Under the pieces are notes generated by a model. It had not been told where the DNA came from and did not search any database. It saw only the letters and a list, made by a program, of their open reading frames with translations. From assembly GCF_058153355.1 (NCBI RefSeq), contig NZ_CM177019.1: a stretch of DNA of 64,000 nt; one strand, 5' to 3'. The translations under genes were made by a program, and so were the position numbers. Shown here piece after piece: positions 53,494-54,423 of the stretch. Position 1 is the stretch's first letter, and each line of letters begins with the position of its first letter.

Positions 53494-54423
53494 ATGGCTA
53501 CATTAATGGAAAAAGATGCGCTTTTAAACGGAGCCAGTCAGTGCATCGCGTTTTTATCAAATATCGTTGATAATTGCTCCGTTTCGTCACGTCAGGATTC
53601 AGTCGATGATCTCACACGATTAGTTGGCTATCGCGATTATCTTTATTCCACTCCAGCTGAATTTGTTGATTTTACACAGGGAAAGAGTCACCTTCAGCAG
53701 GTAAGAACTCAATATCAGCGTGAATTCAATAATACTGCACATTCAGAAAATAAAGTATCTTTTGATTCTATTTGGCAGCGTCTGACAAATCATGAAGTCA
53801 CACCGCAACAGCATCCCATTGGTTTTGTTTTAGGTGGGCAACCCGGAGCGGGTAAATCATCGCTGATTGAATTAGCAAAAAGGGAAACAAAGAATAATAT
53901 AATGATTATTAACGGTGATGATTTCAGATTTCTACACCCTGATTTTAATTATATCTACCAAACTCATGGGGATGATTTTGTTACCCATACGGCGAAATTT
54001 TCCGGCGAAACGGTCGAACGAGCAATTGAGAGGGCGATAGTCAGTAAACTCAACATTGTTGTCGAAGGAACATTTCGTAATGCCACTACGCCGCTACAAA
54101 CATTAAAAAAACTCAAAGATGCAGGCTACCAAACAAACGTCATGATAAAAACCACCTCAGCGACGGTAAGCTGGGAAAGCACCAATGAACGGTATAATAA
54201 GGACAAAGAGGCGGGAAATATCGCCCGAAAAGTGGATAAAAACCACCACGATCTCGTCACCGATTTGCTGGCAGAAAATGCCAGCAAGGTGTTTGCTTCG
54301 AACCTGGCAGATAAGTTTGCGGTGTATTCGCGTGAGAAGATGATATTTAGTTCACAAGCGGCAACGAATGACGATATTGCGACGCTTATACAGAAGGTAA
54401 TCAGCGGGAATTCACAAGAATAA
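53494..54423 (+). CDS. zeta-toxin-like P-loop kinase domain protein (orphan, no adjacent epsilon-type antitoxin ORF)
   Basis: 309-aa from ATG 53494 (AGGAG 5 nt upstream); Walker A GGQPGAGKSS about 120 aa in, then conserved Asp-containing segments; AT-rich gene. Confidence 0.6.
   Translation: MATLMEKDALLNGASQCIAFLSNIVDNCSVSSRQDSVDDLTRLVGYRDYLYSTPAEFVDFTQGKSHLQQVRTQYQREFNNTAHSENKVSFDSIWQRLTNHEVTPQQHPIGFVLGGQPGAGKSSLIELAKRETKNNIMIINGDDFRFLHPDFNYIYQTHGDDFVTHTAKFSGETVERAIERAIVSKLNIVVEGTFRNATTPLQTLKKLKDAGYQTNVMIKTTSATVSWESTNERYNKDKEAGNIARKVDKNHHDLVTDLLAENASKVFASNLADKFAVYSREKMIFSSQAATNDDIATLIQKVISGNSQE

Follow-up and report, generated by a model that had tools for sequence, protein, structure and literature searches.

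How is a zeta-type toxin kept harmless when no antitoxin gene accompanies it? An open reading frame that raises this question, called ezeT here on grounds given below, was found directly after lysC in the window, the stretch of 64,000 nucleotides of DNA that was analysed. The preliminary description of this frame, made from the letters alone, had treated it as an orphan zeta-toxin-like kinase with an N-terminal extension. It had left three options: the extension acts as an antitoxin in cis, the protein is a non-toxic kinase, or it works with an adjacent pair of SPFH and nucleotidyltransferase genes. Our analysis confirmed this observation on positions 53494-54423, with minor coordinate corrections. 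With a probability of about 0.9, the window protein is orthologous to EzeT, a type II toxin-antitoxin made of one polypeptide. The gene, its architecture and its mechanism are already known and were published in 2015.

The reading frame and its upstream region

The window around ezeT is Escherichia chromosome, with the gene order pgi (minus strand), lysine riboswitch, lysC, ezeT, rlaP, a slipin gene, yjbD, rluF, pepE and yjbB. The coordinates of the features are collected in Table 1. The ezeT frame opens with an ATG at 53494, ends with the stop codon 54421-54423 and encodes a product of 309 amino acids. It had been placed 138 bp after lysC. The adjacency holds and the distance is corrected: lysC ends at 53349, leaving a spacer of 144 bp up to the ATG, and 138 bp is what one measures up to the GTG at 53488, which is in frame. 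In agreement with the claim that no small open reading frame lies between lysC and the zeta-like gene, none was seen when the 144-bp spacer was translated in all six frames.

Table 1. Coordinates of the features in the window, numbered from its first letter
Feature	Position	Strand	Remarks
STnc430 sRNA	49507-49656	+	Rfam; expected core-genome position
naRNA4	49722-49793	-	Rfam; expected core-genome position
lysC lysine riboswitch	51712-51908	+	Rfam; expected core-genome position
lysC	52000-53349	+	directly upstream of ezeT
Accessory DNA, about 3.4 kb, absent from K-12	53350-56775		ezeT and convergent rlaP-slipin; right boundary approximate
Hairpin after lysC stop	53361-53393	+	12-bp stem, 9-nt loop, no T-run
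-10 hexamer TATAAT	53457-53462	+	no recognisable -35
Shine-Dalgarno AGGAG	53484-53488	+	5 nt ahead of ATG
ezeT, probable ortholog	53494-54423	+	309 aa plus stop; single-chain toxin-antitoxin; 91% to WP_000212693.1 and Pfam Zeta_toxin
N-terminal domain	53494-53742	+	residues 1-83; putative cis-acting antitoxin, by orthology; predicted three-helix bundle
Zeta/PezT-type UDP-GlcNAc kinase (toxin) domain, putative	53743-54420	+	residues 84-309; PezT/zeta sequence and Foldseek matches
Walker A / P-loop GGQPGAGKSS	53833-53862	+	residues 114-123
RlaP-family nucleotidyltransferase	54456-55256	-	Pfam RlaP PF10127, E 2.9e-96; neighbour, outside EzeT system
SPFH/Band 7 (slipin) protein	55253-56380	-	Pfam Band_7, E 6.6e-24; RefSeq 'slipin family protein'; outside EzeT system

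The ribosome binding site announced upstream of the frame was recovered as the AGGAG motif. A near-consensus tataat had been reported at 53456-53461. The hexamer is indeed there, shifted by one base, and it has no -35 partner: at a 17-nt spacing, the -35 position reads AAATCA, with two of six matches to the consensus. Because of this missing -35, a promoter and terminator consensus scan did not call the ezeT promoter; the hairpin after lysC was not called either. Both elements are present and simply fall outside the consensus rules of the scan. From position 53409 to the start codon, -10 hexamer and ribosome binding site included, the DNA is identical to that of the reference EzeT locus, whose promoter has been described with a -10 but no -35 (PMC4803016).

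The hairpin had been taken for the terminator of lysC. A hairpin does form at this place (RNAfold, -15.7 kcal/mol) but its assignment to lysC did not hold up. No T-run follows it, it lies within island-specific DNA that is missing from K-12, and it cannot be shown to be the terminator of lysC itself.

Kinase domain, N-terminal domain and relationship to EzeT

The assignment of the product to the zeta-toxin-like kinases was examined with profile HMMs, as the preliminary description had proposed, and was borne out. The Pfam family Zeta_toxin (PF06414) matched residues 101-282 with an E-value of 6.4e-40 (137 bits). Secondary Pfam matches to AAA_33 (4e-5) and KAP_NTPase (8e-5) could suggest another P-loop kinase (AAA_33, polynucleotide kinase or KAP) mislabelled as zeta, but they are weak and the Zeta_toxin match is 35 orders of magnitude ahead of them. 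Sequence matches in the PDB were to PezT (2p5t, E 5e-31) and to zeta (1gvn and 3q8x, E 1.6e-26). An AlphaFold2 model of the whole protein, built with 41 homologs, reached a pLDDT of 90.5 and a pTM of 0.89. When this model was compared with the PDB using Foldseek, the eight best matches were zeta or PezT chains without exception, with 1gvn_B in first place (E-value 4.5e-15, rmsd 1.7 Å over 218 columns, target-normalised TM 0.75). Zeta and PezT structures stood at about 1e-14, as against 1e-3 or worse for other kinases. Membership in another P-loop family is thus refuted by the Pfam scores and by the Foldseek neighbours, and we give it next to no probability.

Within the zeta/PezT family, the PezT equivalog model of NCBIfam (NF041574) scored 125.6 bits for a cutoff of 470. 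The product is therefore related to PezT without being PezT proper. The alignment with this model starts at residue 87, facing profile position 12. The starts of the PezT and Pfam alignments show that the product carries about 75-85 extra N-terminal residues. The Walker A motif had been located about 120 residues in, behind an extra N-terminal segment, which agrees with its position in Table 1 and with the ~85 residues ahead. This motif is invariant or nearly so across 41 homologs. In the sequence alignment, K121, D142, E191, R233 and R245 face K46, D67, E116, R158 and R171 of zeta, and every catalytic residue is intact in the window's allele.

In the AlphaFold2 model, three N-terminal helices (residues 4-27, 30-52 and 60-78) precede the α/β kinase core. 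The boundary of the N-terminal domain was adopted from the published EzeTΔN83 and EzeT(1-82) constructs. Modelled separately, the isolated domain had a pLDDT of 84. The Pfam family Epsilon_antitox (PF08998) gave no match in the product even at E ≤ 10, and a phmmer search of residues 1-90 against the PDB gave a best E-value of only 0.77. With Foldseek, the isolated domain retrieved generic three-helix bundles only (E ≥ 1.1), and epsilon and PezA were absent among the best 50, a result that is uninformative rather than negative since Foldseek is weak on small helical bundles. Epsilon and the C-terminal domain of PezA are three-helix bundles. The architecture predicted by the model would match theirs, which makes an analogy with epsilon/PezA plausible; homology is not demonstrable.

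Full-length homologs that carry the N-terminal domain fell into only three groups: Escherichia proteins (85-96% identity), a Pseudocitrobacter group (60%) and one metagenomic protein of 346 amino acids (35%). The latter keeps the motifs M.KD.L, R.YLYST and F....R.KY. The next-closest kinase domains, in unnamed proteins (67-69%) and in Neisseriaceae (44-50%), are devoid of the N-terminal domain and have a C-terminal tail instead. This tail is 60-80 residues long and often ends with D-[IV]-E-I-[DE]-R; many of the Neisseriaceae proteins have about 297 amino acids. The tail may be a cis antitoxin at the other end of the protein, a signal for secretion or the companion of a separate antitoxin gene.

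The relationship to a characterised system was established by comparison with WP_000212693.1, to which the window protein is identical at 281 of 308 residues (91%), without gaps. WP_000212693.1 is encoded right after lysC in E. coli O39:NM F8704-2, and the order pgi-lysC-ezeT-rlaP-slipin-yjbD is common to the window and the F8704-2 locus. In a 2023 FEMS review this protein is named "the dual TA EzeT", and lysine-sensitive aspartokinase 3 is reported near EzeT in B1 strains (PMC10532202). EzeT was characterised by Rocker & Meinhart (2015, Mol Microbiol 97:589) and is reviewed in PMC4803016 and, by the original authors, in PMC4826407. According to these reviews, full-length EzeT is harmless, whereas EzeTΔN83 lowers viability and permeabilises or lyses cells. 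EzeTΔN83 phosphorylates UDP-GlcNAc, and UNAG-3P builds up. Residues 1-82 are the cis-acting antitoxin, and EzeT(1-82) supplied in trans also rescues the cells. The toxicity of EzeTΔN83 appears only below 30 °C (PMC4803016, PMC4826407).

Given 91% identity to EzeT at the same locus, an N-terminal extension acting as an antitoxin in cis corresponds to the published mechanism, shown experimentally for the reference protein; this first option of the preliminary description is thereby supported. With the antitoxin fused in cis, the protein would need no epsilon or PezA gene beside it. The label 'orphan' remains correct only in the sense that a separate antitoxin gene is lacking; a named and characterised system had gone unrecognised.

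By orthology and homology, residues from about 84 to 309 would form a zeta/PezT-type P-loop kinase. This kinase would use ATP to convert UDP-N-acetylglucosamine to UNAG-3P, thereby blocking peptidoglycan synthesis and leading to lysis. Residues 1-83 would constitute a three-helix domain that keeps the kinase inactive in cis, probably by occluding the ATP site in an epsilon-like manner. The gene would be expressed from its weak, -10-only promoter. Toxicity, UNAG kinase activity and rescue in trans are expected of the window protein by analogy with its 91%-identical relative. As possible ways of lifting the EzeT inhibition, Rocker & Meinhart name proteolysis, the binding of a chaperone or a modification of the protein.

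The second option, a domesticated or decayed non-toxic kinase whose N-terminal extension would serve some other end (localisation or the choice of substrate, for instance), could draw on the harmlessness of full-length EzeT and on the inactivity, at 37 °C, of even the truncated form (PMC4803016, PMC4826407). A solitary long zeta homolog of Acinetobacter is also reported in the literature as non-lethal. However, the five catalytic residues named above are all kept in the window protein. In addition, EzeTΔN83, derived from the 91%-identical reference, is lytic and makes UNAG-3P (PMC4803016, PMC4826407). Relative to reference EzeT, the 27 differences are distributed as 11 in the 83 residues of the N-terminal domain and 16 in the 225 of the kinase. 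The corresponding dN/dS values, 0.20 and 0.25, indicate purifying selection on both domains. A decayed kinase is therefore disfavoured and seems to us very improbable.

The accessory block between lysC and yjbD

Homology to the lysC-yjbD spacer of K-12 MG1655 breaks off at the lysC stop and returns around position 56775, some 130 nt ahead of yjbD. The 3.55 kb that follow the lysC stop and end shortly before yjbD were matched in 1642 of the 5426 complete E. coli genomes, on the chromosome in every case. No Rfam match was obtained within the island. Positions 56381-56775, from the slipin start to the return of K-12 homology, consist of about 400 bp of AT-rich (42% GC), island-specific non-coding DNA and presumably harbour the slipin-rlaP promoter.

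At the nucleotide level, ezeT of the window shares about 93-94% identity with the majority of E. coli copies and at most 96.8%. The pgi-lysC flank shows 98.3-98.7% identity in the best-matching genomes and more than 95% in every genome with a match. This makes the window's ezeT allele more divergent than its background would lead one to expect. The same comparison was made for the island as a whole (53350-56900) against the flank 49826-53349: the island agrees with the majority of E. coli copies at only ~94%, and reaches 98% with that of one goat isolate. These identities place the accessory block in a more divergent allelic lineage than its flanks.

The third option of the preliminary description was that the kinase works with the adjacent SPFH and nucleotidyltransferase genes. 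EzeT, RlaP and the SPFH/slipin protein would then make up one three-gene system, with the neighbours contributing, for instance, its antitoxin or its trigger. Conflict-type neighbourhoods often contain RlaP and SPFH proteins, and the three genes form one lysC-yjbD accessory block in about 1424 genomes. Several observations argue against such a system. The distributions are independent: of the 5426 complete E. coli genomes, 1433 have ezeT and 1631 the rlaP-slipin pair. Strain 2021CK-01784 carries a cluster of phage-tail genes beside the pair in place of ezeT. The Pseudocitrobacter ortholog (60% identity, N-terminal domain present) is located between HEAT-repeat and HD-domain genes, away from any RlaP or slipin gene. 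The GC content is 41% for ezeT as compared to 50-54% for the pair, the latter being similar to the flanks of the island. The rlaP and slipin genes, which overlap by 4 bp, converge on ezeT; the two units are therefore not co-transcribed. PADLOC gave no meaningful match for any of the three products. Finally, neutralisation in the published work needs the N-terminal domain only (PMC4803016, PMC4826407). On the basis of independent distribution, GC content, orientation and the Pseudocitrobacter context, the three-gene system was rejected, and we see hardly any chance for it.

The rlaP and slipin genes form an apparent two-gene operon, perhaps a module for conflict or repair not characterised so far. 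In Pseudocitrobacter sp. (GCA_008369545.1), the ezeT ortholog follows, after 38 bp, a co-directional gene for a HEAT-repeat protein of 224 aa. A convergent HD-domain gene comes next, a radical-SAM/TRAM gene is found upstream, and RlaP and slipin are far off. Nothing in this context resembles the Escherichia locus.

The organisation of strain 2021CK-01784 bears on the junction itself. Between its lysC and rlaP genes, in the interval equivalent to about 53350-54455 of the window, lie ~15 kb with phage-tail, holin and Mor genes. The insert comprises a Mor activator, a holin, an SLT lysozyme and genes for sheath, tube, tape measure, baseplate and tail fibre; capsid or replication genes were not in view in this insert. 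Its gene content suggests a tailocin or the remnant of a prophage. Cargo swapping appears to have a hotspot at the lysC-yjbD junction. In E. coli CUWW06, an IS1 truncates ezeT, removing the C-terminus of the kinase, beside an intact rlaP-slipin pair; this strain is a natural knock-out. IS1 elements were seen in or next to ezeT in further strains as well.

One may imagine that EzeT, as cargo of this hotspot, serves as a cold-active abortive-infection or stress sensor, with a phage or envelope signal unlatching or cleaving the N-terminal domain. The divergence of the window's allele (~6%, as compared to ~1.5% for the flanks) might then reflect lineages with different triggers. We regard this scenario as unlikely, and in the literature searched, no paper connects EzeT with phage defence. 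As a discovery the result carries small weight, and about one in four complete E. coli genomes has the gene. It has value as a calibration: a cis antitoxin in a solitary long zeta toxin had been correctly inferred from raw sequence.

Comparison with known toxin-antitoxin systems

EzeT (WP_000212693.1) and the window protein share their two-domain architecture, their length (308 and 309 amino acids), the site after lysC, the -10-only promoter, the ribosome binding site and the catalytic residues. They differ by their substitutions, 11 of the 27 being in the N-terminal domain, and by one extra C-terminal residue in the window protein.

PezAT of S. pneumoniae (2p5t) and epsilon/zeta of pSM19035 (1gvn, 3q8x) possess a homologous UNAG-kinase toxin domain with the same catalytic residues. 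In structural alignment their toxins are 27-29% identical to the window kinase, with an rmsd of 1.7-2.7 Å. PezAT, epsilon/zeta and EzeT are all neutralised by a helical antitoxin module. In PezAT and epsilon/zeta, however, this module is encoded by a separate upstream gene, whereas in the window protein the antitoxin, assigned by orthology, would be fused in cis. The bicistronic arrangement with a small upstream antitoxin, present in canonical zeta systems and absent from the window locus, is what sets EzeT apart.

The ng_ε1/ng_ζ1 pair of N. gonorrhoeae resembles EzeT as a Gram-negative zeta-family kinase that drains cell-wall precursors (PMC5923241). By its description, it differs in consisting of two genes, in the unrelated fold of its antitoxin and in a P-loop nearer the C-terminus, and ng_ζ1 phosphorylates several UDP-sugars at the C4'-OH (PMC5923241).
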